64,000 nt of DNA from Squalus acanthias (taxonomy: Eukaryota), in NCBI GenBank assembly GCA_030390025.1, contig CM059432.1, positions 22,694,001 to 22,758,000 of the forward strand, read 5' to 3'. Below are positions 1 through 64,000 of the stretch, in pieces. The number at the start of each line of letters is the position of its first letter. Positions within the stretch are counted from its first letter, which is position 1. The position numbers and the translations under genes are program-made. A model generated the notes under the pieces. That model did no database searches. It was given only the letters and a program-made list of their open reading frames with translations, and was not told where the DNA came from.

Positions 1-2036
1 GTATTATGCAATGAGAAAGGATTAATTAGCAATCTTGTTGTGCGAGGCCCCTTGGGTCGGAGCGATCATAATATGATAGAATTCTTCATTAGGATGGAGA
101 GTGAAGTAGTTGAATCAGAGACTAGGGACCTGAATTTAAATAAAGGAAACTACGATGGCATGTGGTGCGAGTTGGGTAGGATTGATTGGGGATTGTCACT
201 CAAAGGGTTGACTGTGGATAGGCAATGGCAAACATTCAAAGACCGCATGGACGAACTGCAGAATTTGTTCATCCCAGTTTGGCATAAGAATAAAACAAAA
301 AGGGTGACTCAACCATGGCTAACAAGGGAAATTAGGGATAGCATAAGATCTAAGGAGAGGGCATATAAATTAGCCAGAAAAAGCAGTAACCCTGTGGATT
401 GGGAGCAGTTTAAGATTCAACAAAGGAGGACAAAGGGATTAATTAAGAAGGGGTTAATAGAATACGAGAGTAAGCTTGCAGGGAACATAAAAACTGACTG
501 TAAAAGCTTTTATAGATATGTGAAGAGAAAAAGATTAGTGAAATCAAGCATAGGTCCCTTGCAGTCAGAATCAGGGGAACTTATAATGGGGAACAAAGAA
601 ATGTCAGACGAATTAAATACATATTTTGGTTCTGTCTTCACAAAGGAGGACACAAATAACCTCCCAGAGATGTTGGGGAACATAGGGTCTGATGAAAGGG
701 AGGAACTGAAAGAAATCAGTATTTGTAGGGAAATGGGCAAAGTCAACATGGATTTACAAAAGGTAAATCATGCTTGACTAATCTACTGGAATTTTTTGAG
801 GATGTAACTGGTAGAATAGATAAGGGAGAACCAGTAGATATGGTGTATTTGGACTTCCAAAAGGCTTTTGATAAGGTCCCGCATAAGAGATTAGCGTGTA
901 AAGTTAAGGCACATGGGATTGGGGGCAAGGTATTGACTTGGATAGAGAACTGGTTGGCAGACAGAAAGCAAAGAGTTGGAATAAACGGGTCTTTTTCCGA
1001 GTGGCAGGCAGTGACTAGTGGGGTACCGCAGGGATCGGTCCTTGGACCCCAGCTATTCACAATATATATTAATGATCTAGACAAGGGAACTAGATGTAAT
1101 ATCTCCAAGTTTGCAGATGACACAAAACTGGGCTGCGAGGAGGATACCGAGAAACTCCAGGATGATTTGGACAGGTTGGGTGATTGGGCAGAAACATGGC
1201 AGATGCAATATAACGTGGATAAATGCGAGGTTATCCACTTTGGTGTCAAAAACAGAAAGGCAGATTATTATCTGAATGGCAATAGATTGGGAGAAGGGGA
1301 AGTGCAACGAGATCTGGGTGTCCTTGTGCACCAGTCGCTGAAGGTAAGCATGCAGGTGCAGCAGGCGGTTAAGAAGGCAAATGGTATGTTGGCCTTCATA
1401 GCGAGAGGGTTTGAGTACAGGAACAAGGATGTCTTGCTGCAGTTGTACAGGGCCTTGGTGAGACCACACCTTGAGTATTGTGTGCAGTTTTGGTCACCTT
1501 ATCTGAGGAAGGATGTTCTTGCCATGGAAGGAGTTCAGTGAAGATTCACAAGGCTGATACCTGGGATGGCAGGAATGAGGTATGAAGAGAGATTGGGTCG
1601 ATTGGGCTTATACTCGCTGGAGTTTAGAAGAATGAGAGGGGATCTCATTGAAACTAAGAAAATTCTGACAGGACAGGACAAACTAGATGCAGGAAGGATG
1701 TTCCCGATGGTCGGGGAGTCCAGAACCAGGGGTCACAGTCTAAGGATAAGGGGTAAGCCATTTAGGACAGAAATGAGGAGGAATTTCTTCACCCAGAGAG
1801 TGGTGAACCTGTGGAATTCTCTGCCACAGAAGGCAGTAGAGGCCAATTCATTAAATAGATTCAAGAAGGAGTTGGATATATTTCTTAAGGCTAAAGGGAT
1901 CAAGGGATATGGGGAGAAAGCAGGGACAGGGTACTGAATTTGGATGATCAGCCATGATCGCATTGAATGGCGGAGCAGGCTAGAGGGGCCGAATGGCCTA
2001 CTCCTGCTCCTATCTTCTATGATTCTATGATTCTAG
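1..2036 (+). mobile_element. CR1-clade LINE, ORF2 (end of APE endonuclease + RT) and 3' UTR; defective
   Basis: ORFs 40-777, 774-1541 and 1566-1937 carry CR1 ORF2 motifs ([57 protein letters not shown]). A frameshifting internal deletion at ~735 joins EISICREM to GQSQHGF. Premature TGA at 1539. 3' hairpin ggagcagg..cctgctcc (1972-2010) and (ATTCTATG)n tail. Confidence 0.95.
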
Positions 2037-2690: not shown

Positions 2691-3547
2691 TGTTGATCAC
2701 CTGGGTGAGAAGTGAATGGAAGACATTTATGATGCTTGACATTAAATGAATCACCTTTATCACATTTGCCACTATGGTATGTAGTGTAGTTTCATACCAG
2801 CTTCGGAGTCTGCATTGTCAGAATGTCATTGATATAGAAGCTTTCAGAATGATTTAAACATTCTTCAATGCAGGATGAAGAGAATAGGGAGGAATGTCGT
2901 GCAGAGTTTCAGGACAGGGAATTGCTGAGCTATGAGCCGATCCCTGATACCTCTGGCTGCAAGGCGTTAAGGCGGCCCTGCGTCCTCTGCTGCTTCCTCT
3001 CCTTACCCCAGGTCTTCCTAGAACTATAAAATGGGCACTGTACAGCAGGCTGTTGAAGGAACCAAGCCTGCCCTGTAATCCCAAAAGTGTAATGTTACCC
3101 CTTTAATTGCACAAGGATTGAAGGTGCTTATTTTTGTACAACATGCTCAATGCAAACACGAAACCAAATATACTTACATGCATAAACCATAAAGGTATTT
3201 CCTACCAGTTGATTCCTACCTGATTAGTTATATACAGGAAACTTTTGTTTATCCGGCACCCAAATATCCGGAATTCTCGCTTAACCGGCAAAAATCATCC
3301 TCCGAAAACTCCTCTCAAATAACCGGCAATGTTGCCGAGTCGCAGTCGAGTCTCCGCGAATGGCGAGTGCTCCGAAAACTCCTCTCAAATAACCGGCAAT
3401 GTTGCTGATCCCGAGTCCGAGTCCGAGTCCGTGAACGCCGATTTAGTCAGTAGGGGTACTTTTCAAAAGTGTCACTACTCGGCCTCCTGGCGCTGTCGCA
3501 AGTCCGAAACATTGCAGTAGCATGAGTAGATTCTCCCGCGCTGCCTG

Positions 3548-4000
3548 GAGTCTCTTCTGATCGGCCATTTTGCTGGGTGTCATCCACGATGCTGGTAGTC
3601 TCTTCTGATCCACCATTTTGCTGTGTGTCTCCCATGCTGCTGGTACTGTAGTCTCTTCTGATACACCATTTTGCTGTGTGTCTCCCACGCTGCTGGTACT
3701 GTAGTCTCTTCTGATACACCATTTTACTGTGTGTCTGCCACGCTGCTGGTACTGTAGTCTCTTCTGATACACCATTTTGCTGTGTGTCTGCCACGCTGCT
3801 GGTACTGTAGTCTCTTCTGATACACCATTTTGCTGTGTGTCTGCCACGCTGCTGGTACTGTAGTCTCTTCTGATACACCATTTTGCTGTGTGTCTGCCAC
3901 GCTGCTGGTACTGTAGTCTCTTCTGATACACCATTTTGCTGTGTGTCTGCCACGCTGCTGGTAGTCTCTTCCTAGCCACCATTGTTCTGTGTGTCTTTCC
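3548..4000. repeat. 53-bp tandem repeat array inside the Tigger 5' region
   Basis: Unit gtagtctcttctgatacaccattttgctgtgtgtctgccacgctgctggtact starts at 3595, 3648, 3701, 3754, 3807, 3860 and 3913, with degenerate units at ~3548 and 3961. Confidence 0.97.
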
Positions 4001-4035
4001 ATCTTCATCGGCAATTATCTCCTCCATCTTGCATT

Positions 4036-5808
4036 ATGGAATTCCCAAAAGCTGGTCCAAGCAAAAGGAAGAGAGTGGTCTTAACTTTAAAACAGAAAAT
4101 CGAGATATGCCAACGACTAGAAAGGGGAGAGAAGCGTATCAACATTATGAATGAATTCAAAATCGGTTCGTCAACAATCTACGACATCAAATCGCAGAAG
4201 GATAAGCTGCTCAAGTTTTATTCAAGCTCGGAGACATGCAAGAGTGTAGAGAAACGGCGTACGCTTCGTAAGCCTAAGCTTGAAGAGCTGGATACCGTGC
4301 TTTATGAATGGTTTTCTCTTAAGCGTTCAGAGGGTGTTCCAATTTCCGGACCCATGCTAATCGAGAAAGCAAAGGATTTCTACGAAAGGATGGAGCTCAC
4401 TGACAAGTGTGCTTTCTCCGATGGATGGCTAACGTGCTTCAAGTTACGGCACGGGATACGACGACTCGATATTTCCGGGGAGAAGAAATCAGCTGATCAC
4501 GAAGCCGCAGAAGAATACTGCGATTATTTCAATCAGATTGTGCAGCAACATGATTTGTCGCCAGCACAGATCTACAATGCCGATGAAACTGGCTTGTTTT
4601 GGAGGTTTTTGCCAGAATCAACGCTTGCTGGGGCTAGTGAGGCTAATGCTACAGGTTACAAGAAAAATAAAGATCGTGTAACCGTGCTAACATGTGCGAA
4701 CGCCGCTGGATCACACCGGGATAAACTTCTTGTTATCGGGAAGTATAAAAATCCCCGTGCATTTAAAAATGTGAGGCACTTACCTGTTGAGTACAAAGCT
4801 CAAAAAAATGCTTGGATGGATAAGGAAATCTTCTCCGATTGGTTCCATCATATTTTTGTTCCATCTGTGAAGGAACATTTCCGCAGAATAGGGAAACCTG
4901 AAGATAGCAAATGCATTTTATTGCTTGATAATTGCAGAGCCCATCCGCATGAATCCCAGTTGGTTTCGGGAAATATTTTCACCATTTATTTGCCACCAAA
5001 TGTAACTTCTCTCATCCAACCCATGGACCAGGGCGTTATCCAAAATCTGAAGTGTCATTACAAGAAAGACTTCCTACGTAAACTGCTAAGCCAAGATGAG
5101 AATATTCAAGATTTGCAGAAGGAATACAATATTAAAGATGCCATCTATAATGTTGCATGTTCCTGGAAATTGGTGAAAGGTCACACTCTGAGGCAAGCCT
5201 GGCGCAAATTGTGGCCTTCTGTAATGTTTGCTGAAGGTTCTTCTTCAGAGGATGAATTTCATGGGTTCAGTGTTCGTCCGAAGAAGAGTACAATAATGGA
5301 AATGGCTGGAATGGTGAAAAATCCAGGCCCAGCAAACCCTCTACGTCACCTCAGTGAAAGTGATATCGAGCAGTGGGTTAATGCAGATAGAGAAGTTGGT
5401 GTTGTGCATATGCTAAGTGATGATGAAATAATTCAGAATGTTTTGAATCCAAAGAAAGAAAAGGAAAGCGAGATGGAAAGTGAAGAGGATGAGATTTCTG
5501 AAGAAGAGAAGATTTCTTGGGCTAAAGCTACAGAAGGATTTTCTACAATCCTCAAATTTGCTGAAAGGCAGACTTGCTACTCTGCACAAGAAGTTATGCA
5601 ACTCCATATTCTGCATTCCACCTTTCTACAGAAAAGGCAAGAGTCCACTAAGCAAACCGACATCCGCAACATGTTTAAGAAAGCTTCCAAAAGAGTCGCA
5701 GCAGCGGAAGTGCCTGAAGAATCTGTGGCATCGGTGGAACTGCGTGATCCTGATCACCCAGCTGGCACGGATACGGATATTTCTGATGAACCAGATGACT
5801 CGGAATAA
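4036..5808 (+). CDS. Tigger/pogo transposase, 590 aa, uninterrupted
   Basis: ATG at 4036 in ORF 3982-5808. N-terminal HTH and CENP-B-type DNA-binding region ([35 protein letters not shown]). Catalytic [10 protein letters not shown] / LLLDNCRAH / IQPMDQGVI with 32 residues between the 2nd and 3rd Asp. C-terminal QTDIRNMF. Confidence 0.95.
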
Positions 5809-6997
5809 GTGTACAGTCAACTACAGTACTGTAGACAGTCGTTTATAAGTTTTGTTTTACTGTTAAGTAATTAAAGAGTTATGGATTACCCTCAACTGGC
5901 AGTACTGTACTTAATCAAGCATCTTCCACTATCCATTTAACACAACATTCTGTAGGTGAGTACCCAAATACCGTATACTGCACATTTCTTGATTTTTTTA
6001 TGTTAAAAATAGCCTCGGTAGATATAACTCTCCGTTATCCGGTACTTTCGATAAACCGGCACCACGCCGATCCCGTCGATGCCGGATAAACAAAAGTTTC
6101 CCTGTATTTTGTATTCCGTTCCACCCAGCATCAGTTGAACTTATCATTACTTTTACAGGCAGGACAGAAGATTGTAATAGTTATGAAATAAAAATACCAG
6201 AAAATAAATCAGTTCAGAAATATGATGCTGTTTCAGTGGCCGGGGCCAATTTTCTTATGTCTCCACTGAGGATGGGGGGGAGCATGCTAGATCCAAGCCT
6301 GCTGGTTCTACATTGCTCCATTAAGGTACCAGTCCGAGACCAGTATCTGTGGTATAACAAGCCCCCTAGATTCTTTTAGAAGTAACAGTCCAGATGAAGA
6401 AAAATGATTTCAATGCAAATGCGCTATCTCATTTAGTTGAATGGATATTGATTAATCCTATAAAACTATCCATTCTTCACCTATGTAATTAAGGGAGAAG
6501 CAATGCAATTCTAAGCTCCCATTCAGAGTGTATAGACTCAAATTCTAGTCTCAACTATCAATCAAAGCCCATGACAAGTTCAGCGATTATTGCTAGACTG
6601 ATACATGAAGTTAGTAGCACTCTACCTTGGTGGGGGAGAAGAAAATGCGTTGTCAATTATTCTACCCCCAAAAATATTGATCCGTATAAAATAGCACTAG
6701 GCTTGGAGATGTCTCTGACCCAGAGGGTTGTACATTTAAGGATAAAAGGAAATCAGCATGGTAGCAGAAAGGCTGAAAGGAAAAGTTAGTGCAACAAGGA
6801 TGGTTTTCTGCAATAGCTTTCTTTCCTGGCAAACATTGGATTGAAAGTGCATGGACCTAAGCTCGCAAAGGGCATTAAGTGGTGCAGGAAAATAAGACAT
6901 TTAGTGATTACTGATGTAAGATTACTGTGCCTGTTGATTCCCAGATAAGATTTGCCATCGTTTATAAATATGGATGTTATGTTAGCTTGTTTCCAAT

Positions 6998-7937: not shown

Positions 7938-8607
7938 CAATCCTGTGCCACCTCACCAGTTCGGGCATGAAATTGGCAAAGCAGCTGTGCCACCCGACTA
8001 AAGCCACCATTGGGAGATCCGAACCATTGTCAAGCTTGGGCCTCATTTGAATGCAGTTGATGAGCAGTGGGCACAAAATGGGAGCTCTGCTGCAGCTTAC
8101 TGGCTCAGGGAGTGGGAGGGGGGAGGGTGGTAATGGAGGAGCTGGTCGGCAGGTAGGGCTTTACGAATGGCTGATCTCGGAGTGGGGGGGGGGTGGGGAG
8201 TCAGCATGGCCCGGCAGCGGGCCATAGTATTTTTGGGAAGCCAGCAGGAGCATTTTTCCTGGCTCGACAAAAATAAAAAGACAAAGATATATTTGGGGCC
8301 CTTTTGTAGAGCGTCCACCAGCAGTCTCGTCAAGGACCACTGGTTCGACCACTCACGCCTGGTAAAAATGGGCAGAGAGTGTGTGGCGCACGCTCATTCA
8401 TTTGTAATTCGAAATAGCAACCAGGGTCTTTAGCCAGCATATGATCCCAATTTGCAAATTTAAAGAACCACCCACCTGAAATAAGCAGACCTGCCATGCA
8501 AGTCCACCTGAAAAAGGGGTGGCCGAGGTTACCCCTTCCCCACCACCCTGATTTTTCTCTGCCAACTGCCCATTTTTCAAGGCAGGCAGCAATTAAAAAT
8601 CCACCTT

Positions 8608-8650
8608 CAGGGTTCTGAAGAAGGGTCATCGACCTGAAACGTTAACTCTG
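8608..8650 (+). ncRNA. Minimal type I hammerhead ribozyme motif
   Basis: Stem I CAGGGUU/AACUCUG (7 bp incl. one GU), core CUGAAGA, stem II GGGUC-AUC-GACCU, GAAA, palindromic ACGU in place of stem III, predicted cleavage after GUU (8643). Confidence 0.7.
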
Positions 8651-8712
8651 TTTCTCTCTCCACAGATGCTGCCCGACCTGCTGAGTATTTCCAGCATTTT
8701 CTGTTTTTATTA
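8608..8712 (+). mobile_element. Penelope-like element terminal fragment
   Basis: Same sequence (gacctgaaacgttaactctgtttctctctccacagatgctgc..tttccagcattttctg) as the terminus attached to the GIY-YIG fragment at 38262-38906. Confidence 0.85.
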
Positions 8713-9839
8713 CTGGCTTCAACTCCTTTACCAAGATGGCGCCTTGCACTAAACGCGGGTTAAACCCGCAGTTCAGCTCAATACCCCACCTTGTCCACCT
8801 CGGAGGATCTTTAGCGCCTGAATGAGCTGCCGAAAATCACCCCCAATCTTCCTGGGGATTTGTTTGTTTTGAGCTCTTTACCTCTGTTAGAATCTTATTC
8901 TCATTGATGTATAAGTTCATAAGTAGGCCTGGAGATACCCCATTTGTGGAGTGCAGGATACTATGGTCTTCTCTAATGAATGTTCTGAAGATTCTTTACA
9001 AATGCTTTCTCCCACCCCATTACAAGAGGTCTGTCTCTCTATAGGCATTCATTTTACCTATTTACTTTGCTCTCTCCAGTAGAAGTTATAACAATTTCAC
9101 CATCTTTTTGGTCACTGTGAAAGTTTCAAACAGCAAAAATGAGTTACTTCACAGAAATCAATGTAGCAATTGTTTTCTTACTTTAGGTTACAGTACACAA
9201 ATAGGACTGACTCATACGACTGCATGTGACATTACTCAGGAGCCTGGAGCAGTGCACTGGAATGCAACCCCATTACATCTGCTCCGAGATTTGTAACAGT
9301 AATTACTTGTTGAAACTGCACCTAAAGCGTGGGTACTCTTAATAAACTGCCACTACAACTATCGATCCTTTTGAAGTTACTGTAATAAACATAATTCATC
9401 TGATGTTTGCAGTACGCGAGAAAATGGGATGCATAATTGTAGATACTTCCGCTGTTTTATAAATTAACGCTTTAAGTACTATTGCAGCATTTCAGTAATA
9501 GGGCATATTTCATGTTATCACTTGATTCAACTAGGAATAAATTGGTCTTTTTATTTTGTTTTTCCGATTATGGAGACTCAAAAATTCAGATATGCCTGAA
9601 GACAGAATTTCAATACTGATTCTGCTGGCTAACCATGAGTATCTCTGAACCTAGGGACATAAACACAGTTTCCCCTCCTCCCAACACTCTGAGAATACAT
9701 GATTAAGATTTCCTCTCACCCTCAATTTATTGAAAGGTGACTTCTAAGCAAATAAAAGTAATGGGAAATAAAAACACATTATTTGCTTTATTGTTCTGCC
9801 TAGATTGGTTTTTGAGCTGTAAGATTCGACTAACAAGCT

Positions 9840-22236: not shown

Positions 22237-23541
22237 GGGGGGAATTTTGCGGGGGATCAGCGGGCACAATCGGTGGCGGGTCAGGTGGGAAAATGTTTAT
22301 TTTTGACAGAGGGTCGGGACCCCGCTGTCAACCCGCCACCAGGTGCCTTTCCCAAATGTCGGGTCTGTCATCACTGAGCAGACCTGACATGCAGTGGCGG
22401 GGGAGGCAATTCAGGTCAGTATGACCTTGCAAACAGAGGATTAAGAACTATTTTCAGCTCACTTTCAGAGTTTACCAGGGCACCCACGGAGACGACGCTG
22501 CTCAGGGAACAATTCAGGTATGCAGGGCGGGATTGAATGGCCATGGAATCATCACATTACTTGACAATTGCAAATGTGCTATAAAAGCTCCCATCTCACA
22601 GCTGTTCACTTTCCAAGCTCAGAAGCTGTTGCTTACTGCATTTGGAACACAGATTGAGCTTTATGCAGGTTGCAATTGTTTAGAGCAAACTCTCTATCCA
22701 GTGTCACCTCATTGGAACAACCTCTCTCACCATTGACAAATCGCTTCTGTCATCTCAAGTTCACCTGCCATCTATTACATAAGAATGGGTACGGTTTAAA
22801 CTGTCTCAGCTTGGTCCTCAGAATCCCACCACGATCAGCCCTAACACCAGCAGCATCAGGCACACCAGCAGCACCAACAACAACACCAACCTTGTCCGCA
22901 ATCAACTGATGATGCACATGACAGAGGGCATCAGCACCCGACCACATTGCTGCCCAGGAGGCCAGGGATTGCCTCACCATGGCCAGATTTACTTCACTTG
23001 ACACTGTACACCCTGGCTTCCACATGATGCACCAGGTTGGCACCACCCCACACCAACACCATAAAGCATTCCTACAATGACCAAGCCATTCCTTTCACAC
23101 TCATCATCATTGCGGGGGGTACTGTTATGTCTCACCATTCACTGCAACTTACTAAGCCACTTCCAAAGGTGCACACAAATCTGTCCAAGAACACAAAGTG
23201 TTGAAAATAAAGGTTTCAATGTTTGACACCACATTAACAGAAACTTTATATAGACATTGTGTAAAGCACCCAAGTGTCTACCCTTGTGTGTTGTTAGTTG
23301 GTATGATTGCACTAAGATGAGGGTGAGTGTGACGGGTGGCTAGTGAGATGGGGAAGTGATAATGTAAATAGAGAGGGATGGGTGGAGGTGCAAGGTAAGT
23401 TGGTGTGTGTAAGGATGTGCAGGAGTAGGGTAGGGAAGGAGAGTGATGGGGATGTGATGAGTGGCATAACAGGATGAGGTTGAGTGTGGCTTTGTACTAA
23501 CAGTTCGTGATCTACTGAGATCATTGAAAGGGTTGCGCCAC
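22237..23541. mobile_element. Internally deleted Harbinger element inside an L2 remnant
   Basis: Terminus ggggggaatttt. Body shared with 36671-38260. Minus-strand Myb fragment WRNPFNDLSRS at ~23510-23540. L2-like sequence on both sides (22185-22236, 23542-23718). Confidence 0.65.
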
Positions 23542-23718
23542 TCTGGAATTCTCTCCCTAAACCTCTCCACCTCTCTCTCCTCCTTTAAGATGCTCATTAA
23601 AACCAACCTCTTTGATGAAGCTTTTGGTCATTTGTCCTAATGTCTTCTTCTTTTGCTCAATGTCAATTTCTATCTGATTACGATCCTGTGAAGTGGCTTG
23701 GGCCATTTTACCACGTTA

Positions 23719-25728
23719 AGAACATAAGAACATAAGAAATAGGAGCAGGAATAGGCCACTTGGCCCCTCGAGCCTGCTCCGCCATTCAATAGGATCACGG
23801 ATGATCTTGGGCTCAAAGCCACTTCCCAGCCTGCTCCCCATAACCCTTCACTCCCTTATCTTGTAAAAATCTGTCTATCTCCACCTTAAATGTATTTAAT
23901 GACCCAGCCTCCACAGCTCTCTGGGGCAGAGAATTCCACAAATTTACGACCCTCTGAGAGAAGAAATTCCTCCTCATCTCAGTTCTAAAAGGGCGACCCT
24001 TTATTCTGAGACTGTGCCCCCGAGTTCTAGATTTCCCCACAAGGGGAAACATCCTCTCTGCATCTACCCTGTCGAGCCCACTCAGTATCTTATATGTTTC
24101 GATAAGATTACCTCTCATTCTGCTAAATTCCAATGAGTATAGGCCCAGCCTGCTCAACCTTTCCTCATAAGTCAAACCCCTCATCTCTGGAATTAACCTA
24201 GTGAATCGTCTCTGAACTGCCTCCAATGCAAGTATGTCTTTCCTTAAATAAGGAGACCAAAACTGTACGCAGTACTCAAGGTGTGGTCGCACCAATACCT
24301 TGTACAGTTGTAGCAGGACTTCCCTGCTTTTATACTCCAACCCCCTTGAAATAAAGGCCAACATTCCATTTGCCTTTTTGATTACTTGCTGTACCTGCAT
24401 GCTAACTTTTTGTGTTTCATGCACAAGGACCCCCAGGGCCCTCTGAACTGTAGCATTTTGTAATCTCTCGTCATTTAAATAATAGTTTGCTTTTTTATTT
24501 TTCCTGCCAAAGTGGATAACCTCGCACTTTCCCACATTATACTCCATCTGCCAAATGTTTGCCCACTCACCTAGCCTGTCTATATCCCTTTGCAGATTCT
24601 TTGAGTCCTCTGCACAACTTGCTTTCCCACCCATCTTTGTATCATCCGCAAACTTGGCTACATTACACTCGATCCCTTCATCCAAGTCATTAATGTAGAT
24701 TGTAAATAGTTGGGGCCCCAGCACCGATCCTTGTGGCACCCCACTAGTTACCGTTTGCCAACCAGAAAATGACCCATTTATCCTGATTCTCTGCTTTCTG
24801 TTAGTTAGCCAATTCTCTATCCATGCCAACTCCGTGAGCTCTTATCTTATGCAGTAACCCTTTATGTGGCACCTTATCGAATGCCTTCTGGAAATCCAAA
24901 TACACCACATCCACGGGCTCACTCTTGTCCACCCTGCTTGTTACATCCTCAAAGAACTCCAGCAAATTTGTTAAACATGATTTCCCTTTCATAAAACCAT
25001 GCTGACTCTGCTTGACTGCAGTATGTTTTTCTAATTGCCCTGCTGCTGCTTCCTTAATGAAGGACTCCAGCATTTGCCCAACGACAGATGTTAGGCTAAC
25101 TGGTCTATAGTTTCCTGCTTTCTGCCTCCCTCCTTACTTAAATAGGGGTGTTACATTAGCGGTTTTCCAATCCGCTGGGACCTCTCCAGAGTCCAGGGAA
25201 TTTTGGTATATTGCAACCAATGCATCCACTACCTCTGCAGCCACTTCTTTTAAGACCCTGGGATGCAGGCCATCTAGTCCAGGGGACTTGTCGTCTTTTA
25301 GTCCCATTATTTTACCGATTACTATTTCCTTAGTGATAGTGATTGTCTTTAGTTCCCCACTCCCTGTGGCCTCTTGATTATCCATTATTGGGATGTTGTC
25401 AGTGTCTTCTACAGTGAAGACAGATGCAAAATATTTGTTCAGAGTCTCTGCCATTTCACCGTTCCCCATTATTAATTCCCCAATCTCATCCTCTAAGGGA
25501 CCAACTTTTACTTTAGCTACCCTCTTCCTTTTTATATACCTGTAGAAGCTCTTACTATCTGTTTTAATGTTTCTTGCCAGCTTACTCTCATAATTCATCT
25601 TCTCTCTCTTTATTATTTTTTTAGTCATCCTTTGCTGGTTTTTAAAAATTTCCCAATCCTCTGGTCTCCCACCAATCTTGGCAACATTGTATGCCTTTGT
25701 TTTCAATTTGATACCATCCTTTACTTCC
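23719..25728 (-). mobile_element. CR1 LINE, 5'-truncated ORF2 (RT), few disruptions
   Basis: ORFs 25134-25706, 24801-25073 and 23813-24829 with KSPGLDGLHPR, DFQKAFDKVPH, KFADDTK, RPHLEYCVQFWSP; (TTCTTATG)n tail at 23719-23737. Confidence 0.95.
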
Positions 25729-26460
25729 TCAGGAGTTCCTCAGGACAGTGCCCTCGGCCCAACCATCTACAGCTGCTTCATCAATGACCTTCCCTCCATC
25801 AGAAGGTTAGAAGTAGGGATGTTCGCTGATGATTGCACAGTGTTCAGTTCCATTTGCAACTCCTCACATTGTCGAATCGCCCATCATCAACATCCTGGGG
25901 GGTCACCATTGACCAGAAACGTAACTGGACCAGCCACATAAATATAGCTATAAGAGCAGGTCAGAGGCTTGGTGTTCTGTGGCGAGTGACTCACCTTCTG
26001 AGTCCCCAAATTCTTCTTACCATCTACAAGGCACAGGTCAGGAGTGTGATGGAATACTCTCTACTTGCCTGGATGAGTGTCGCTCCAACAACACTCAAAA
26101 AGCTCGCCACCATCCAGGACAAAGATGCACTGCAGCAACTTGCCAAGACTTCTTCGACAGCACCTCCCAAACCCGCGTCGTCTACCACTTACAAGGACAA
26201 GGGCAGCAGGTACATGGGAACACAACCATCTCCAAGTTCCCCTCCAAGTCACACACCATCCTGACTGGGAAATATATCACCATTCCTTCATCGTCGCTGG
26301 GCCAAAATCTTAGAACTCCCTCTCTAATAGCACTGTGGGAGTACCTTCACCATACAGATTGCAGCGGTTCAAGAAGGTGGCTCACCACCATCTTCTCAAT
26401 TAGGGATGGGCAATAAATGCTGGCTTTGCCAGCGACGCCCACATCCCATGAAAGAATATA
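25729..26460 (+). mobile_element. RT/3' fragment of a non-CR1 LINE (probably the family of 13495-15115), with internal deletions
   Basis: GVPQDSALGPTIYSCFINDL, MFADDCT, IYKAQVRSVMEYS; tail gggcaataaatgctggctttgccagcgacgccca. Confidence 0.8.
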
Positions 26461-28176: not shown

Positions 28177-30200
28177 TGTTATACAGCACAGAAAGAGGCC
28201 CTTCGGCCCATCGTCTCCGTGCCGGCCATCAAGCCCTGTCTATTCTAATCCCATTTTCCAGCACTTGGTCCATAGCCTTGTATGCTATGGCATTTCAAGT
28301 GCTCATCTAAATGCTTCTTGAATGTTGTGAGGGTTCCTGCCTCTACCACCCTTTCAGGCAGTGAGTTCCAGATTCCAACCACCCTTTGGGTGAAATTTTT
28401 TTTCCTCAAATCCCCTCTAAACCTCCTGCCCCTTACCTTGAAACTATGCCCCCTGGCTATTGACACCTCTACTAAGGGGAAAAGTTCCTTTCTATCTACC
28501 CTATCTATGCCCCTCATAATTTTGTACACCTCAATCAGGTCCCCCCTCAGCCTTCTCTGCTCTAAGGAAAACAACCCCAGCCTGTCCAGTCTCTCTTCAT
28601 AGCTGAAGCGCTCCAGCCCAGGTAACATCCTGGTGAATCTCCTCTGCACCCTCTCCAATGCAATCACATCCTTCCTATAGTGTGGCGACCAGAACTGCAC
28701 ACAGTATTCCAGCTGTGGCCTAACTAGAATTTTGTACAGCTCCATCATAACCTCCCTGCTCTTATATTCTATACCTCGGCTAATGAAGGCAAGTATCCCA
28801 TATGCCTTTTTAACCACCTTATCTACCTGTCCTGCTGCCTTCAGGGATCTATGTACATGCACACCAAGGTCCCTCTGATCCTCTGTCCTTCCTTGGGTCC
28901 TACCATTCATTGTGTATTCCCTTGCCTTGTTAGTCCTCCCAAAATGCATCACCTCACACTTTTCAGGGTTAACTTCCATTTGCCACTGTTCTGCCCATCT
29001 AACCAACCCGTCTATATCGTCCTGTAGCCTGAGGCTTCCCTCCTCGCTATTTACCACTCCACCAATTTTCATGTCATCTGCGAACTTACTGATCATACCT
29101 CCTACATTCATATCTAACTCATTAATGTACACTACAAACAGCAAAGGACCCAGCACCGATCCCTGTGGTACACCACTGGACACAGGCTTCCAGTCACAAA
29201 AACAACCTTCGACCATCACCCTCTGCCTCCTGCCACTAAGCCAATTCTGGATCCAATGTGCCAAATTGCCCTGGATCCCATGGGCTCTTACCTTCTTGAC
29301 CAGTCTCCCATGTGGGACTTTGTCAAAAGCCTTACTGAAGTCCATGTAGACTACATCAACTGCACTACCCTCATCCACACACCTAGTCACCCCCTTGAAA
29401 AATTCAATCAAATTGGTTAGACATGACCTCCCCCTGACAAAGCCATGCTGACTATCCTTGCCTCTCCAAGTGGAGACTAATTCTGTCCCTCAGAATTTTT
29501 TCCAATAATTTCCCTACCACTGATGTTAGGCTCACTGGCCTGTAATTCCTTTGTTTATCCCTACTACCCTTCTTGAATAATGGTACTACGTTAGCTGTTC
29601 TCCAGTCCTCTGGCACCTCCCCTGTGACCAGAGAGGTTCTGAAAATTTGTGTCAGAGCCCCTGCAATCTCCTCCCTTGCCTCACACAGCAGCCTGGGATA
29701 CATCTCGTCAGGGCCTGGGGATTTATCCACTTTGAAGCCCACTAAAACCTCACCTACATTTTCCGGCTCTACACACAGATTGCCACTTTGGTCCCTAATG
29801 GGCCCTACTCTTTCCCTGGTTATCCGCTTGCCCTTAATATACTTATAAAACACCTTGGGATTTTCCTTTATTTTGCCCATCAGTGTTTTTTCAAGCCCCC
29901 TCTTCGCTCTCCTAATTTCTTTTTTAAGTACCCCCCTGCACTTTCTATACTCCTCTTGGGCTTCCACTGTTTTTAGTCCTTTGTATCTGCCAAAAGCCTC
30001 CCTTTTTTTCCTAATCCATTCTTGTATATCCCTTGACATCCAGGGTTCCCTGGGTTTGTTGGTCCCACCCTTGACCTTTACGGGAACATGTTGGCGTTGT
30101 ACTCTCTCTATTTCCTTTCTGAAAGACTCCCACTGCTCTGATGTGGATTTTCCTCCAAGTAGCTGATTCCAGTCCACTTTGGCCAGATCCTGCCTTATCA
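28177..30200 (-). mobile_element. CR1 LINE ORF2, 5'-truncated, with deletions
   Basis: 388-aa ORF 28245-29411 (MDFSKAFDKVPHGRL, KFADDMK, RPQLEYCVQFWSP) and upstream KSPGPDEMYPR/NYRPVSLTS; tail remnant aatcatag at 27345-52. Confidence 0.95.
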
Positions 30201-30212
30201 TATTAAATATTA

Positions 30213-30440
30213 AAAGGGCAGCAGGTGCATGGGAACACCACCAGGTTCCCCTCCAAGTCACACACACATTGTCATCATTGTTGCTGGGCCAAAATCCAGG
30301 AACTCCCTACCTAACAGTACTGTGGGAATACCTTTATCATATGGACTATATTGATTCAAGAAGTTGGCTCAAGGGCAACTAGGGGTGGGCAATAAATGCT
30401 GCCCTTGCCAGCAATACTCACATCCTGAAAATGAATTAAA
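30213..30440 (+). mobile_element. 3' end of the non-CR1 LINE family (continuation of 27295-27344)
   Basis: cctagaaggacaag (27331-44) joins ggcagcaggtgcatgggaacacc (30217) as in 26190-26225. Confidence 0.7.
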
Positions 30441-31640: not shown

Positions 31641-31927
31641 ATCTTTTTTTTATACCAGAACTTTATTTAAACTTTCCTAGGTTATTTTCTGTATTTTTGC
31701 CTCTTCCAGGAGATTACAAGGCTGCTGGGGGTAGGAAGTGTCTCGACATGATACTCCATGCATCGTACTATAACTTGCCCAAACAGCTAGCTAAAGAAAG
31801 GGCTCCCGGTCACTACCCAGACACCTTTGTTGAAAAGTTGTATCTGTATATGCAGGTGAGATCAGGATTGTGTTTAGCTGTGATGCCACTCACCATTAAA
31901 TGGCCTGCTGATAAAGAAATAATTGAA

Positions 31928-32060
31928 GACAAAAGCAAACTACTGCGGATGCTGGAAATCTGAAATAAAAACAGAAAATGCTGGAAATACTCAGCAGGCC
32001 AGGCAGCATCTGTGGAGAGAGAAACAGAGTTAACGTTTCAGGTCGATGACCTTTCTTCAA
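31928..32060 (-). mobile_element. Penelope terminal fragment with damaged hammerhead core
   Basis: Reverse complement reads ttgaagaaaggtcatcgacctgaaacgttaactctg... Confidence 0.8.
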
Positions 32061-32067
32061 AATAATT

Positions 32068-32595
32068 AAAGACTTGCCTTTCACAACTTCAGGATGTCCC
32101 AAAGTGCTTTACAACCAATGAAGTACTATTGAAGTGTAGCCACTGTTGTCATTTAGCAAAGCAGCAGCCAACTTGCACACAGCAAGCTCCCACATAGAGC
32201 AATGAAATAAATCATCTGTTTTCGGTGTTGGTTGAGGGATACATTTTGGCCAGGACACCAGGAGAACTGCCCTGTTCTTCCGTTGGATAGTCCATATGTA
32301 TCTTTTAGATTCACCTGAGAGAGTCGATCTCTCTCAGGTGAAGACCCACAACCTCTCTGAAAAAGCTGCACCAACATCTCTCTGTAGAATCGATTTATTC
32401 TATTGATTTTAATCAGTGTCTTTGTAGATTTGGCTTAATGTCTCATCTGAAATACGGCACCTCTGATAGGGCAGCACTCTCGTGGTACTGGAGTGGCAGC
32501 CGAGATTATGTGCTCAAGTCTCTGGAGTGGGACTTGAACCCACAACTTTCTGATGCAGAGGCGAGAGTGCTGCCACTGAGGCACAGCTGACACTT
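32068..32595 (-). mobile_element. Deu-domain SINE, decayed, with ~100-bp internal insert
   Basis: Reverse complement of head (gggacttgaacccacaac) and tail. Confidence 0.75.
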
Positions 32596-32759
32596 AGCTT
32601 ATGATACTGATACTCTGTCAAGGTTAAGATGTGAGGAACGGGCTGCTAGGGTGAGCTATCTGAGGCTGCCAGGACCCGTGATACTGGATATGAGATGAAG
32701 AAGGGAGTTTAACTGAAAGGAATTTAGATTCTGTAGCATGAAATATTCATTTTAATGTA

Positions 32760-33172
32760 CAGGAAACTTTCGTTTATCCGGCACCCAAATATCCGGAATT
32801 CTCGCTTAACCGGCAAAAATCATCCTCCGAAAACTCCTCTCAAATAACCGGCAATGTTGCCGAGTCGCAGTCGAGTCTCCGCGAATGCCGAGTGCTCCGA
32901 AAAATCCTCTCAAATAACCGGCAATGTTGCCGATCCCGAGTCCGAGTCCGAGAACGCCGATTTAGTCAGTAGGGGTACTTTTCAAAAGTGCCACTACTCG
33001 GCCTCCTGGCGCAAGTCCGAAACATTGCAGTAGCAGGAGTAGATTCTCCTGTGCTGCTTGGAGTCTCTTTGTTAAAAATAGACTCGGTAGATATAACTCT
33101 CTGTTATCCGGTACTTTCGATAAACCGGCACCACGCCGGTCCCGTCGATGCCGGATAAACAAAAGTTTCCTG
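32760..33172 (+). mobile_element. Non-autonomous 413-bp deletion derivative (MITE) of the Tigger at 3235-6104
   Basis: TA at 32758-59 and 33173-74. Same TIRs. Left part matches 3235-3556, right part matches 6001-6104. Confidence 0.97.
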
Positions 33173-34189
33173 TATTGCAGTATGGCAGAATATGAAGAAA
33201 TTGACAGACAAACACAACGCACAAAGTTATTTGTAGTTGGAGAACCCAATGGAAATCAACGAATACAGCAATATTTTTTAAACACATTCGGTAGTGAATT
33301 CTGAAATCAGACGCTGAACTTTGGTGGATCAGTAAGTAAGCAGCTGCAAATAGCAGATAGCAGACGAGGATTTAGGAATAAATAGGCAGCAAAGGTAACC
33401 AGCCAAAAGCAAAGAGATATGTTAAATAAGATTTTAGAAAAGACTTTCAAACCCACAGCAAGGTTTCCCAGGAAAAGCTAACTCCTCAATTTGTTGGTGC
33501 TGTGATTGTAAAGAAAATTGTCATTGGGAATGATTTCAGCCTAACTGCGTTTTTTAAGACCATAAGAAGAAGCCAAGGATGAGAAAAGACTAGTTGGCCT
33601 ATTGAGTTGCTCCTTTTAATATTTCAACTCACCCGGGCTAATATCCAACCACATCCTGAACTCCCCAAACATTATTAATTTCATTATCTTACCTGGAGGA
33701 TCATCCTAAGCACCTAGCATCCTTTGAGTAAAGACACTGGGGTTAAATTTCCGCCAGGGTTCTCCCGATCGTCTACCGTAACTTTGGCCCGAAGATCCGC
33801 AGAAATCCTGGAGAAATGGTCATTACGTTGTTTCTCGGGGGTTTCCGTGGAACTTCTGTCTAAATTATGGCAGATGGTGGGGGATTCCCCATTGAAATCC
33901 AAGCTCATATTTTTTATGATCTGTTGTAAATTTACATTCCACTAGTTCCACTAATTTAAATTTGTATCCTCTTGTTCTACTGGCCTGACTGACACCAAAA
34001 TAATATTCTGAGTTTACCTCATTCATGCCCTTTCAAGTTGTAATGTTGCCCCTTAACCACCCGTTCTCTGGACTGTGCAGCTTACATTTCTCCAATATTT
34101 CTAAGAATATCGCTGCAGATTTATCCTCCACTGTTCAGACTGTATATCTCAACACTTTGTTTGATATTTCTAAATTGTCATATTGCTTT

Positions 34190-36650: not shown

Positions 36651-38261
36651 AGTCATTGACCTGAAACGTTGGGGGGAATTTTTCGGGGGGTCAGCAGGCA
36701 CGTTTGGTGCCCACTGACGGGTAGTGAACCCGCTGTCAACCCACCTCCACGCTTGTCTCCCAGATGTTGGGTCTGTCATCGCTGAACAGATCCAACATCA
36801 GGCGGCAGGGGAGGCAATTTAGATCATTAGAGGCAATTAAACAGTATTTTAAGCTTAGCTTTAGATTTTTAGAGTTCGCCAACGGTTTCCACGGTAAGGA
36901 GGTCGGGTGTTGGGTCAGCGTGTGATGATTTCTTTACTTGACAGCTGCAAATGGTCTATAAAAGCATCCATTTCATAGCTGTTCACTTTCCAAGGTTAGA
37001 AGCTGTTGCTTACTGCATTTGGAAGACAGATTGAGCTTTATGCAGGTTGCAAGTATTTGGAGCAAACTCTCTATCCAGTGTCAACCCATTGGAACAACCT
37101 CTCTCACCATTGACAGATCGCTTCTGTCATCTCAACCTCACCTGCCATCTATTACATCAGCATCGGTGCCCTTAAAAAAATCTCACCTTGGTCCTCAGAA
37201 TCCAACCACGATCAGCCCCAACACGAGCAGCACCAGGCACACCAGCAGCACCAACAACAACACCAACCTTCTCCGCAATCAGCTAGTGTTGCACAGGACA
37301 CAGGGCATCAGCACCCGACCACATTGCTGCCTGGGACGTCAGGGATGGCCTCACCATAGCCAGATTTACTTCACTTGATGCTGTCAAATCATGCACACTT
37401 GCCTTTCCCAATGTCGGGTCTCCCAGTGCTGAGCAGACCTGACCGGCAGTGGCGAGGACCTAATTTAAACAATTATTGGCTTGTTGACAAACCCTTGAGA
37501 GTGAATTTAACCTTACCTTTTGACATTAAGAGCTCACCCACACCTTCCACGCTGCTCCTGGACCCCGTCTGTTAATCTGAGGCGGAAGTTGAGTGGCCAT
37601 TGAATCAGCTGATGAGTGACAGCTTGAAATGTAATATAAAAACTCCCACTTCACACCTGTTCACTTTCCAAGCACAGAGGCTGTTGCTTTCTCCCTTTAG
37701 AACACAAATTGAGCTTTATGCAGGCTACAAGTATTTGGAGCAAACTCTCCAGCCAGTGTCACCTCGTTGGAACAACGTCTCTCGCCATTGACAGATTGCT
37801 TCTGTCATCTCAAGCTCACCTGCCATCTATGACATCAGAATGGGTACAGTTTATACTGTCTCACCTTGGTCCTCAGAATCCCATCACGATCAGCCCCAAC
37901 ACCAGCACCCGACCACATTGCTGCCCAGGAGGCCAGGGATGGCTCACCTTGGCTAGATTTACTTCACTTGACACTGCACACCCTGACTGCCACATAATGC
38001 GCAAGGCTAGCACCACCCCACACCAACACCATAAAGCATCCCTACAATGCCCAAGCCATTCCTTTCACACTCATCACCAATGTGGGGGGTACTGTTATGT
38101 ATCACCATTCACTGCAACTCACTAAGCCACTTCCAAAGGTGCACACAAATCTGTCCAAGAACGCAAAGTGTTGAAAATAAAGATTTCAATACTTGACAGC
38201 ACATTAACAGAAACTTCACATGAACATTGGCTAAAGTACCCGAGTGCCTACCCTTATGTAT

Positions 38262-38906
38262 TAACAACAGAAAACGCTGGAAAAACTCAGCAGGCCAGGC
38301 AGCATCCATGGAGAGAGAAACAGAGTTAACGTTTCAGGTCGAAGACCTTTCATCAGAACTGGAAAAAAGCAGGAAATGAAATAGATTTAAAGTAAGTATA
38401 ATGCTTGGAAAAGGGGGAGGGGATGAAAGAACAAAATGGAAGGTCAGTGGTAGGATAGAAGGCAGGAGAGATTAAGAGACATTGAGAGACATTAAGAGAT
38501 AATCAAGGCAAGAGGAGGTGGTAATGTGACAGGTTGAGGCTAGATGAAGTGTGAAATGCGCTGGCAGAATGAAGGACAGCTGCCAGCTTCTGGGAAGGAA
38601 GAAAAAAAGGCCAAACAAAAGGGTGGATGAAAAAATAAAATAAAAATACAAATATATATGTGATAGGGGCCGGGGTTATGATCTGAAATTGTTGAACTCT
38701 ATATTGAGTCCAGAGGGCTGTAGGGTGCCTAAACAAAAGATGAGGTGCTTTTCCTCGAGCTTACGCTGAGCTTCCCTGGAACAATGCAAGAGGCCGAGGA
38801 CGGTGAGGTCAGAGTGGGAGTAGAGTGGAGAATTAAAGTGACAGGCCACCGGGAGCCCGGGGTCCCCCTTACAGACTGAATGGAGGTGTTCCGCAAAGCG
38901 GAACCC
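38262..38906 (-). mobile_element. Penelope-like element 3' part (GIY-YIG endonuclease C-terminus + terminal repeat)
   Basis: Minus strand ~38906-38678 reads RFAEHLHSVCKGDPGLPVACHFNSP..RKLEEKHLIFCLGTLQPSGLNIEF, typical of Penelope GIY-YIG C-termini. Confidence 0.85.
38321..38362 (-). ncRNA. Minimal type I hammerhead ribozyme motif
   Basis: Minus strand CCAGUU CUGAUGA A AGGUC UUC GACCU GAAAC GUU AACUCUG: canonical core, 5-bp stem II, 4-bp stem I. Confidence 0.7.
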
Positions 38907-39636
38907 TTATGTATTGTTAATTGGTATGATTGGACTAGGTTGCGGGTGAGTGTGAGGGGTGGCTAGTGAGATGGGGATGTGATAATGTAGATAGAGAGGA
39001 ATGGGTGGAGGTGCAAGGTAAGTTAGTGTGAGTAAGGATGTGCAGGAATAGGGTAGGGAAGGCAAAGTGATGGGGAGGTGATGAGTGGCACAGCAGGATG
39101 AGTTTGAGAGTGGCTTTGCAGTAATGTTTCGTGATCTAATGAGATCATTGAAAAGCTTGCGCCACTGCAGCCTGGTCCTCCTAACGACATCCCTGATTGT
39201 GCGCTGTGTAACCAGGCTGTGTTGATCTCCTAGGGAGGTCTCTTCCACCCATGGAAAGAGAAGAGAACCTCCCTGCGTGCTGTGACTCCCTCCAAAAGTA
39301 TATGGAGGGAGTCATGGGAGAGCCATGGTGCAGGCGTGCACCTCTGTGCAGTGCTTGTCAGTGTTTGCAGCACCTCAATGCTGTAGAACACTGACAGCAC
39401 AACTGTCAAAATCAATTTGCGCATGGTCCCTTTAAGGAAACCAGCTGATGACGCATCATCAAGTGATGTCAGCATACCTGCTTCGTTCAATTGGTCGGGA
39501 AACGTGCAGGGCGGACTTAACAAGCCCTATCAATGTAAAATACTTTTCACAGAGCGGACTGGAGCCAGCAGTGGGGTCGTACCCCGTCACCGACCCCGGC
39601 CGCAACGGACCCGCCTCGGTAGGCGAAATCGCGGCT

Positions 39637-39742
39637 GTTAACTCTGTTTCTCTCTCCACAGATGCTGCCTGATCTGCTGAGTATTTCCAGCATTTTCTGT
39701 TTCTACTTCAGATTTCCAGCATCCGCAGTATTTTGCTTTTGT
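39637..39742 (+). mobile_element. Penelope terminal fragment (5' part at 36652-36670)
   Basis: gtcattgacctgaaacgtt | gttaactctgtttctctc reconstitutes the terminus once the Harbinger is removed. Confidence 0.8.
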
Positions 39743-40269
39743 ACCAGTTGTGAAGTGCTCATTTTCACTTTCTACGTGCAGTACTTTGCACTAGTCTGTG
39801 TTAAATTGATCATGCCGCCTAGTTCACCTTGTTAAAAGCTCTGAAATGTTTTCCTTCAGGGCATATTTTACAATCGCATGCTGCCAAAGTGGAAGTGCAT
39901 ATTCGGCCTTCATTTGTGCAGTTACCTATGATTTTAATCAATGGAAAATCAAGTTGGGGGGAGGCGGTGCGTGGGAGGCATGTTTATAAATTCCCCTTAA
40001 TGCACTCTTGATGAACAAGGTGCCATGATAGGATTGTGTATTTTTAGAATTTACCACTTTATGTAAGGAGCACTATAGAAAATAAGATTGTTGTTTTCCA
40101 GCAGTCATGTATTCGTAAAAAATGTCTTTTAAAAAAAGCACTGATTAAGTACAGTCCTGAATAAATAAGCACAACTGTCGCATTTTATATGCATTAATCC
40201 ACGTTGAAGTAGCTACCTCGCAGTCTGTTACACTAGTATTCAATCATAAACCACCCATTAAGTATCAAT

Positions 40270-50754: not shown

Positions 50755-51672
50755 GGTTGAGTTTGCTTGTGAAATTAGGTGGCACAGTAAGTAGTGTAGT
50801 GGGAACAGAAAGTTGCAATGGGACATTGATAGATTAAGTGAGTGGGCAAAACTGTGGCAGATGGAGTTCAATATGGGGAAGTGTGAGGTCATCCACTTTG
50901 AACCGAAGAAAGATATATCCGAGTGTTTTCTAAATGGTAAGAAGCTAGGAACTGTGGCGGAGCAGAGAGATTTAGGGGTCCAAGTACAGAATCACTAAAA
51001 GCTGGTGGACAGGTACAAAAGTAATTAAAAAGGCTCAAGGGAGCTGGAATCCAAAAGGGTGGAAGTTATGCTACAGTTGTATAAAGCTTTGGTTAGACCC
51101 CATCTGGAAAACTGTGTTCAGTTCTGGGCACCGCTCCTCAGAAAGGATATATTGGCCTTGGAGGGGATGCAGCACAGATTAACCAGAATGATACCTGGGC
51201 TAAAAGGTTAAATTATGAGGACAGGTTTGTATTCCCTTGAGTATAGAAGATTAAGGGGTGATCTAACCTGAGGTGTTTAAGATGATTAAAGGATTTGAAA
51301 GAGTAGATAGAGAGAAACTATTTCCTCTGTTGGGGGAGTCCAGACCAAGGGGGCTTAACCGTAATATTAGAGCTGGGCCGGTCAGCGGTGATGTCAGGAA
51401 GCACTTCTTCACATAAAGGATTGCGAAAATCTGGAACTCTCTCTTTCAAAAAAGCTGTTGAGGCTAGGTCAATTAAAAAATTAAAAACTGAGATAGATAC
51501 ATTTTTACAACAGCAAAATACTGCGGATGCTGGAAATCTGAAATAAAAACAGAAAATGCTGGAAATACTCAGCAGGTCAGGCAGCATCTGTAGAGAGAGA
51601 GAGAGTTAACGTTTCAGGTCGATGACCCTTCGTCAGATAACTTTTTGTTAGGTAAGGGTATTAAGGGATATG
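50755..51672 (+). mobile_element. Decayed CR1 ORF2 3' part, with a Penelope insert
   Basis: DIDRLSEWAKLWQMEFNMGKCEVIHF, VRPHLE.CVQFW, KGIKGYG (continues after 59146). Confidence 0.85.
51507..51648 (-). mobile_element. Penelope terminal fragment with hammerhead core (CUGACGA)
   Basis: Minus strand tctgacgaagggtcatcgacctgaaacgttaactctc... Confidence 0.8.
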
Positions 51673-53959: not shown

Positions 53960-54124
53960 TTAATATTGTTTTTGTAAATATGTGTTAATTGATTATTGAT
54001 AAATTTATTAATTCAGTTTGGATTATTTTGTTGTGCGTCTCATTTCAGCTTTGCGCTGTGAAATGGCCTGCGACAGAGATGGAATGATGGGGATGTGGTG
54101 AGCAATGGGGACCTGGGGTTTAAT

Positions 54125-63176: not shown

Positions 63177-63552
63177 AATGGGTCCTTAAAATTGAGTCAG
63201 TAGTCAAACTGAACATGAGTAAAGGAAAGGGATAATGCTAATTAAGCTATGAAAGCTTATACAAACCAAACATTCCTTGCCAGGGATGGAAAACTAGCCA
63301 TCAAGTCCACAGGCCCAGAGACGACTTGTTAAGGGGGACATAAAGGTGTCCTGCCTTATCTGGAGCTGTCTGTGACCTCTTTGTTAGCAAATACCTGAGT
63401 AAACGAGTGATGTGGCACATCTATGGACTGGTGCTTTATTGATTTGGAGGTTCTGCTGCAGCCATCCTCCATTATCAGCACCCGTTGTCCGAGAAAATGG
63501 GAGCGATGGCTAAGGTTAAGTGAATGTTAAGGCTGGAAGGCTTTAAAGTGCT

Positions 63553-63628
63553 TAATAGAAAGATGAGGTGCTGCTCATCAAGCTTGCGTTGAGCTTTATT
63601 GGAACAGTGTAGGAGGCCAAGGACAGAT
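63553..63628 (-). mobile_element. Penelope GIY-YIG fragment
   Basis: Homologous to ~38730-38805 (aagatgaggtgc..aagcttgcgttgagc..ggaacagtg..gaggccaaggac). Confidence 0.65.
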
Positions 63629-64000
63629 AATCTAATACTATTAACTTGTCAGCTATCTAAGGAGTTTCATTCTAAATTAATCTCAGCAACCTATATCAAT
63701 CTCAGACACTGATCATAACTGTAAATTTATAATCAGCAAGCAGTTAATGCTGAACTATTGATATAGAAGAAAGCCAGATAAATGGAGTTGCATTACAGAT
63801 AAGTGGTGATCTAATTGAATGGCGGAACAGGCGGAAGGGGCGGTGCAATACTGCCGGTGTTGCAATAACTCTCAGGACAAATTTCTATGCCAATTTGTCC
63901 TGCACTGTTATCTAACCATGTGCACTTTCTAGCAGGAGTCACTGGATAAAAGTTAGGAACTGTACCCCTGTATAATTTTGCTGAGGACAGTTGTGTCACG

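Follow-up and report, generated by a model that had tools for sequence, protein, structure and literature searches.

The 64-kb window analyzed here, a 64,000-nucleotide stretch of the Squalus acanthias genome, contains five copies of a repeat that carries all or part of a minimal hammerhead ribozyme motif. Judging from sequence, these five motifs are very probably the 3' ends of a single high-copy, Neptune-type family of Penelope-like elements of cartilaginous fishes, and the copies its passive leftovers. The surrounding repeat is 88-96% identical among the five copies (BLAST within the window). The original prediction placed the motif at 8.6, 32, 38, and 51 kb, with a split copy in addition, and we recovered it at all five sites. 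Penelope termini had been named as the carriers, and we identified an endonuclease end, target duplication, and tail, as expected of such elements.

Penelope-like insertions in the window

One copy carries coding sequence. It is a 640-bp, 5'-truncated Penelope-like insertion (38263..38902, minus strand) consisting of an endonuclease end, terminal repeat, hammerhead, and short 3' end. The 640 bp lie between two identical 13-bp sequences (38250..38262 and 38903-38915). A sibling repeat that is uninterrupted at 23034-23542 holds the 13-mer only once (23280-23292), so the 38-kb copy is a genuine insertion that duplicated its target site. The hammerhead occurs about 320 nt downstream of the endonuclease stop, on the same strand.

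The first 225 bases of the insertion comprise 74 codons and a stop (38676..38900, minus strand), the last part of a GIY-YIG endonuclease. The best protein matches of this 74-aa fragment are from skates and rays (55-67% identity), and it is 63% identical to the end of skate protein P0004. Pfam returned no match for the fragment alone; a weak GIY-YIG match lies upstream of the matched part in 6 of the 10 relatives scanned. In the skate and ray relatives, the region preceding the match contains both a CX4CxxC linker and a GIY-YIG motif. Specifically, a CX2-5CxxC linker is present in P0004, P0018, P0123, and P0139, and the fragment in the window starts after it. Longer relatives (P0018, P0123, and P0139; 43-50% identity over the fragment) combine a reverse transcriptase with GIY-YIG. 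The CX2-5CxxC linker marks Neptune and Nematis elements, and a GIY-YIG domain at the C terminus after this linker, as in the closest relatives of the shark element, is a feature of the Neptune clade (PMC8557442). Since the fragment starts downstream of the linker, the probable assignment to Neptune rests on these relatives; unlike full Neptune elements, the truncated copy lacks both the linker and the reverse transcriptase. No reverse transcriptase and no full-length or tandem element was detected in the 64-kb window.

An older, diverged endonuclease-end fragment of a related element is present at 63514..63630 (minus strand), with no hammerhead match beside it. The skate gene model P0009, named neuromedin-U receptor 1, ends in an endonuclease fragment, and P0001, P0004, and P0073 are similar fusions. 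Such fusions are either gene-model errors or exonized copies.

The other copies are shorter. At 8.6 kb, a 5'-truncated copy (8612..8711, plus strand) has a whole core, with C3 at 8615 and a predicted cut after U17 at 8643; it ends at the short 3' end and has no clear target duplication. The 32-kb copy (31931..32059, minus strand) has a tail, starts at U4, and is missing C3. It is flanked by a 14-bp target duplication with one mismatch (upstream copy 32060..32073, minus strand; second copy 31917-31930). The 51-kb copy (51507..51641, minus strand), inserted in the 3' end of a LINE, also has a tail, with a whole core (C3 at 51636) and a possible 5-bp A-run duplication. Overall, target duplications are clear in two of the five copies (13 and 14 bp), weak in one, and ambiguous in two (the 8.6-kb and split copies).

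The split copy consists of a 5' piece (36652..36670, plus strand), which begins within stem II, roughly 10 nt past where C3 would be, and runs to U17, and a 3' piece with a tail (39637..39743, plus strand). The pieces are separated by a later, DNA-transposon-like insertion of about 3 kb (36671..39636) that has decayed inverted ends, a duplicated GTT, and contains the 38-kb copy. We infer that this insertion is Harbinger-like. It sits at the predicted cut site of the split copy, which it broke at GTT-AAC, probably only because GTTAAC offers a TTA/TAA-type target. The 640-bp copy inserted into it later. The nesting of this copy within an insertion that splits an older one indicates that the family was active both before and after that insertion.

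The copies have 3' ends at two points, 65-68 nt past the predicted cut in two copies and 102-104 nt past it in three. The two 3' ends, about 35 nt apart, are the known optional Penelope tail; in an Anolis element, a 30-40-nt tail lies between two priming sites (PMC11167929).

Contigs matching the element and its target duplications (38250-38915, 666 bp) number 32,440 of 51.4 million records in X5, 1,895 in X15, and 2,079 in X17, showing a very high copy number in at least two organisms. This comparison covered four public runs. None of the 24 runs listed is recorded as RNA, and X15 and X17 are taken as RNA by guess only. Raw-read run X21 had only 23 diverged reads, out of 10.1 million, on the element stretch.

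Several other features of the element were observed. An ATG at 8666 (plus strand), 22 nt after the cut, and at the equivalent site of the other copies, begins a frame that is open through the tail in all three tailed copies and could represent the start of the element. Upstream of it lie a pyrimidine tract and CAG, and downstream another tract with TTTCAG; sense copies in introns could provide cryptic splice acceptors. Three single contigs (joints on 38331-38674) join the region after the stop to the hammerhead, skipping 311-334 nt. Such copies are missing the bulk of the terminal repeat and may have arisen by splicing or deletion. One deep contig in each of X15 and X17, which represent two organisms, joins 38816 to 38262 through an identical stretch of 27 letters; this may be an expressed insertion common to both.

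Self-matches make up about a third of the window. An apparently whole pogo/Tigger-type DNA transposon (3230-6108) looks young. It has an open frame of 610 codons (3976-5808) with CENP-B_N, HTH_Tnp_Tc5, and DDE_1 domains (Pfam) and a 53-bp tandem array at 3532-3996. An internally deleted copy (32755-33176) is 93-96% identical, and its end matches 3232-3258 in inverted orientation. CR1-type LINE copies occur at 54062-57400 and 729-1937 (plus strand) and at 23813-25739 and 28245-30306 (minus strand); one CR1-type LINE has an esterase-like first frame (GDSL match at 54848-55450).

Anatomy and variation of the hammerhead motif

The pattern CUGANGA-x-GAAACGU has three exact matches in the window (8615, 38356, and 51636) versus a mean of 0.01 in shuffled windows, none of 100 of which reached three. 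A looser core pattern had five matches versus 1.57 expected; the extra matches, at 27115 and 37609, were discarded, as neither had a convincing stem II on visual inspection. In RNA order, the motif consists of a stem I strand, CUGANGA, an extra A, stem II, GAAA, C-G-U-U, and the second stem I strand. The type I arrangement of CUGANGA, GAAA, and an NUH site is whole in three of the four core-bearing copies, each of which has all 11 core bases. Stem II has 5 bp and a 3-nt loop, is paired in all cells of the four copies, and is predicted to form with a probability of at least 0.93 in each. All four copies have an extra unpaired A between A9 and stem II. The suggestion that stem III is reduced to the palindrome ACGU holds in the same four copies, which have no stem III loop.

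The native setting of the motif is found in the 38-kb copy, the sole one with native upstream sequence. Here, the hammerhead (38324..38360, minus strand) has a 4-bp stem I (AGUU/AACU), C3 at 38356, the 5-bp stem II, ACGU, and a cut predicted between 38328 and 38327. The motif follows a pyrimidine tract and CAG. As predicted, the 8.6-kb copy has the longest stem I (7 bp, 8608-8614 with 8644-8650, plus strand), with the outer pairs contributed by flanking DNA. Two of the four core-bearing copies lack stem I, the 32-kb copy having 2 bp and the 51-kb copy 1 bp.

The 32-kb copy has a U (32060) where the other core-bearing copies have C3, and was originally described as mutated at this position. Position 3 is the last base of the 14-bp target duplication, so C3 was probably never inserted. 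We favor an insertion junction over mutation at this site, where a C-to-T change could still account for the U. The 32-kb copy is not a complete ribozyme.

Could the motif be a chance or fossil look-alike that is catalytically dead even in the source element? A search of Rfam at E values up to 10 found no hammerhead among eight matches in the window or six in 8560-8760, although a blank is expected for a motif without stem III. No two-sided covariation was seen among the copies: none of nine pairs changed on both sides, in four copies that are too few sequences for such an analysis. In predicted folds, the stem I closing pair has a probability of at most 0.035 in all four monomers, and the core strand of the 38-kb and 51-kb monomers pairs with the cleavage site. 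All of these observations could be read as signs of inactivity. Against this, all 11 core bases are present in three of four copies, in the place where such elements carry the motif, and over thousands of contigs the motif sites that vary, among the 40 of 122 differences listed, are N7 and loop II. Moreover, core mutants abolish cleavage in the Anolis relative (PMC11167929). Overall, we regard a dead source hammerhead as improbable.

The tolerant pattern of variation requires a more careful reading. N7 is A, A, U, or C across the core-bearing copies, loop II is AUC or UUC, and the 10.1-11.1 pair is G-U in two copies and A-U in two, just as was noted at first. The freedom at N7 and loop II is real, but it reflects subfamilies of source elements, and on these four copies the core is not more conserved than its flank. 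The 11 core positions have 1 change in 44 cells versus 11 in 246 for the downstream flank (Fisher p = 0.70, or p = 0.38 if C3 at 32 kb is counted as junction), and four copies are too few to show or exclude selection. N7 is C in 51%, 75%, and 64% of the depth in X5, X15, and X17, respectively. The variation in contigs fits constraint on source elements and is uninformative about dispersed copies; core variants may lie beyond the 40 differences listed.

The long pattern had no loci in a metagenome collection, and scans of viral contigs and of prokaryote contigs also gave none. The single locus for the short pattern is a chance match in an apparent bacterial ribosomal-protein region.

5' junctions at the head of the hammerhead

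Measured from C3, the 5' junctions of four of the five copies fall close together, at 3 and 5 nt upstream in two and at 1 and about 10 nt downstream in the other two. They group where stem I begins, some 30 nt short of the cut site, and in three of the four short copies stem I or C3 was lost at the junction. The cut site is included in every one of the five copies, with no copy beginning at or beyond it, which indicates that the templates were uncut. Uncut RNA is likewise the insertion substrate of the Anolis element (PMC11167929).

The same hot spot is seen in the public contigs. Among the 18 of 936 loose ends listed, 151 contigs of X5 leave the element at 38359, three bases before C3, and none of those listed forms a pile at the cut site. 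The departures at 38359 lead into unrelated AT-rich sequence (agreement 0.33, median 255 letters). Smaller piles occur at 38355-38361 in X15 and X17. A further 125 contigs leave at 38367 with an agreement of 0.61, consistent with a subfamily that has different upstream sequence, and the drop in depth upstream of the motif therefore overstates truncation.

One possible explanation, which we put forward tentatively, is that the very abundant 100-135-nt shark repeat is a defined product of Penelope replication, primed at the tail sites and ended by run-off at an RNA 5' end or by a fixed stop. The native sequence at the hot spot, CCAGTTC, matches the initiator consensus, YYANWYY. The same site is also a pyrimidine tract with CAG, which resembles a 3' splice site. 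In Drosophila virilis, helix I marks the end of an intron, and the transcription start lies 46 nt upstream of that intron (PMC4209133, PMC2377424). A spliced template with a common first exon is unlikely in the shark, as no sequence is common to the loose ends at 38359 and the target duplication at 32 kb abuts the core. Two further processes account for the pile equally well: arrest of reverse transcriptase at a folded or protein-bound hammerhead, and microhomology between the T-tract and AT-rich targets. If the repeat were nevertheless a defined product, the position of the ribozyme might set the 5' boundary of most insertions without any need for cleavage, an idea that we hold to be doubtful at present. 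The junction would then usually strip the stem I strand, disarming dispersed copies. We found no report of such a 5' hot spot in the literature examined; a coverage figure in PMC11167929 may show one.

We propose the following as the likely route by which the copies arose. The source element carries a minimal hammerhead in a terminal repeat, about 320 nt past the stop codon. Cleavage after GUU would occur only when two tandem copies pair through ACGU and, judging from published relatives, would probably be slow and require help from protein. The element's endonuclease would nick AT-rich DNA, and the reverse transcriptase would presumably prime inside uncut RNA, 65-68 or 102-104 nt past the cut site. 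Reverse transcription would stop early, usually at the head of the hammerhead. Most dispersed copies lost the 5' stem I strand at the junction, have no close partner, and appear to decay like their flanks. We infer that they are neutral.

Related systems and host transcripts

By sequence and context, the shark motif appears to belong to the minimal hammerhead class of Penelope elements. It resembles the minimal hammerheads described by Cervera and De la Pena (2014; PMC4209133) in its type I topology, CUGANGA with an extra base, GAAA, 5-bp stem II (4-8 bp in the class, where stem I has about 3-5 bp), palindromic 15.2-16.2 positions, absence of loop III, short stem I, and U-rich upstream sequence. 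As in that class, the motifs are mostly single and dispersed, derived from truncated elements; coelacanth and Xenopus genomes each contain thousands of them. The extra base after A9 and C-G-U-U at 15.2-17 fit the published consensus, and C-G-U-U recurs in Fig. S3 of the same paper. The consensus G10.1-C11.1 pair (above 80%) is absent from the shark copies, which have R-U instead, although G-U or A-U at this pair also occurs in Xenopus, cichlid, and coelacanth rows of PMC4209133. We saw no cartilaginous fish in Table S1 or Fig. S3 of that paper.

The family is also similar to PAc, a Poseidon element of Anolis carolinensis (Frangieh et al. 2024; PMC11167929), which has a hammerhead near the 3' end, two 3' ends that form the tail, AT-rich targets, and an uncut RNA template. 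Unlike PAc, in which the frame starts at stem II, the first ATG in the shark element is 22 nt past the cut. In addition, relatives of the shark element carry a Neptune-type linker, and the shark family is known only as sequence, distinguishing it from PAc.

Animal non-LTR retrozymes are likewise short, non-coding units with type I hammerheads (bioRxiv 10.64898/2026.07.22.740005; PMC7229834). Their units are related to Penelope terminal repeats, and have been described in one chondrichthyan genome with a mean unit of 363 bp (bioRxiv 10.64898/2026.07.22.740005). Retrozymes are defined by tandem units. In contrast, each of the five copies here stands alone, separated by at least 4.6 kb or nested, and coding sequence is present in one. 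With no tandem units in the window, the copies are not a retrozyme.

It was originally suggested that two sense copies in one long transcript could pair through ACGU and cut host pre-mRNA, a proposal that we now view as highly unlikely. In its favor, the copies are dense (five in 64 kb, three of them on the minus strand), and the element's sequence turns up in two runs taken to be RNA by guess, whose contigs show neither strand nor ends. Given the 7-bp stem I of the 8.6-kb copy, any sense GUU-AACUCUG might in principle be a usable substrate, including the 3' piece of the split copy. However, the 32-kb copy lacks C3 and has only 2 bp of stem I, and stem I at 51 kb is 1 bp. A whole core with at least 4 bp of stem I occurs in just one copy per strand (8.6 kb, plus; 38 kb, minus). 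The partner of the 8.6-kb copy would be the split copy 31 kb away on the plus strand, and on the minus strand the 38-kb copy has partners at distances of 6 and 13 kb.

The predicted energetics are also unfavorable. For all six pairs computed, the active dimer is 6.7-18.5 kcal/mol above the summed monomer folds, in a calculation limited to secondary structure that ignores tertiary contacts and includes no known-active control. Homodimers are 6.7 (8.6-kb copy) and 8.9 kcal/mol (38-kb copy) above the monomer folds, and the three mixed minus-strand pairs are 11.8-16.6 kcal/mol above them. In published relatives, a single minimal motif did not cleave and adjacent dimers cleaved weakly (PMC4209133), eight of nine Xenopus dimers did not cleave (bioRxiv 10.64898/2026.07.22.740005), and the Anolis motif requires the element's protein, with no RNA reads reported to end at its cut site (PMC11167929).

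No host exon was identified among 165 frames scanned with Pfam; the six matches are all to domains usual in transposons (LINE or DNA transposon). The scan covered 165 of the 166 frames of at least 65 codons outside self-repeats; one frame is a pogo-type transposase. Shorter exons would be missed, and the window may yet lie within an intron. Cleavage of host transcripts by dispersed copies would involve tens of thousands of sites, a scenario that nothing here supports. Most copies probably could not cut a host RNA.

We found no study of Penelope hammerheads in sharks, in a search that mostly excluded subscription papers. The observations extend the class published in 2014 to cartilaginous fishes, in which the copies are very numerous, a modest advance. 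What the Penelope hammerhead does is not yet settled in the literature (PMC8557442). The finding that 5' junctions gather at the start of the motif and not at the cut site offers an inexpensive genomic way to approach this question. If the fixed boundary were true, the junctions would show, across the genome, which form of the RNA is reverse transcribed.
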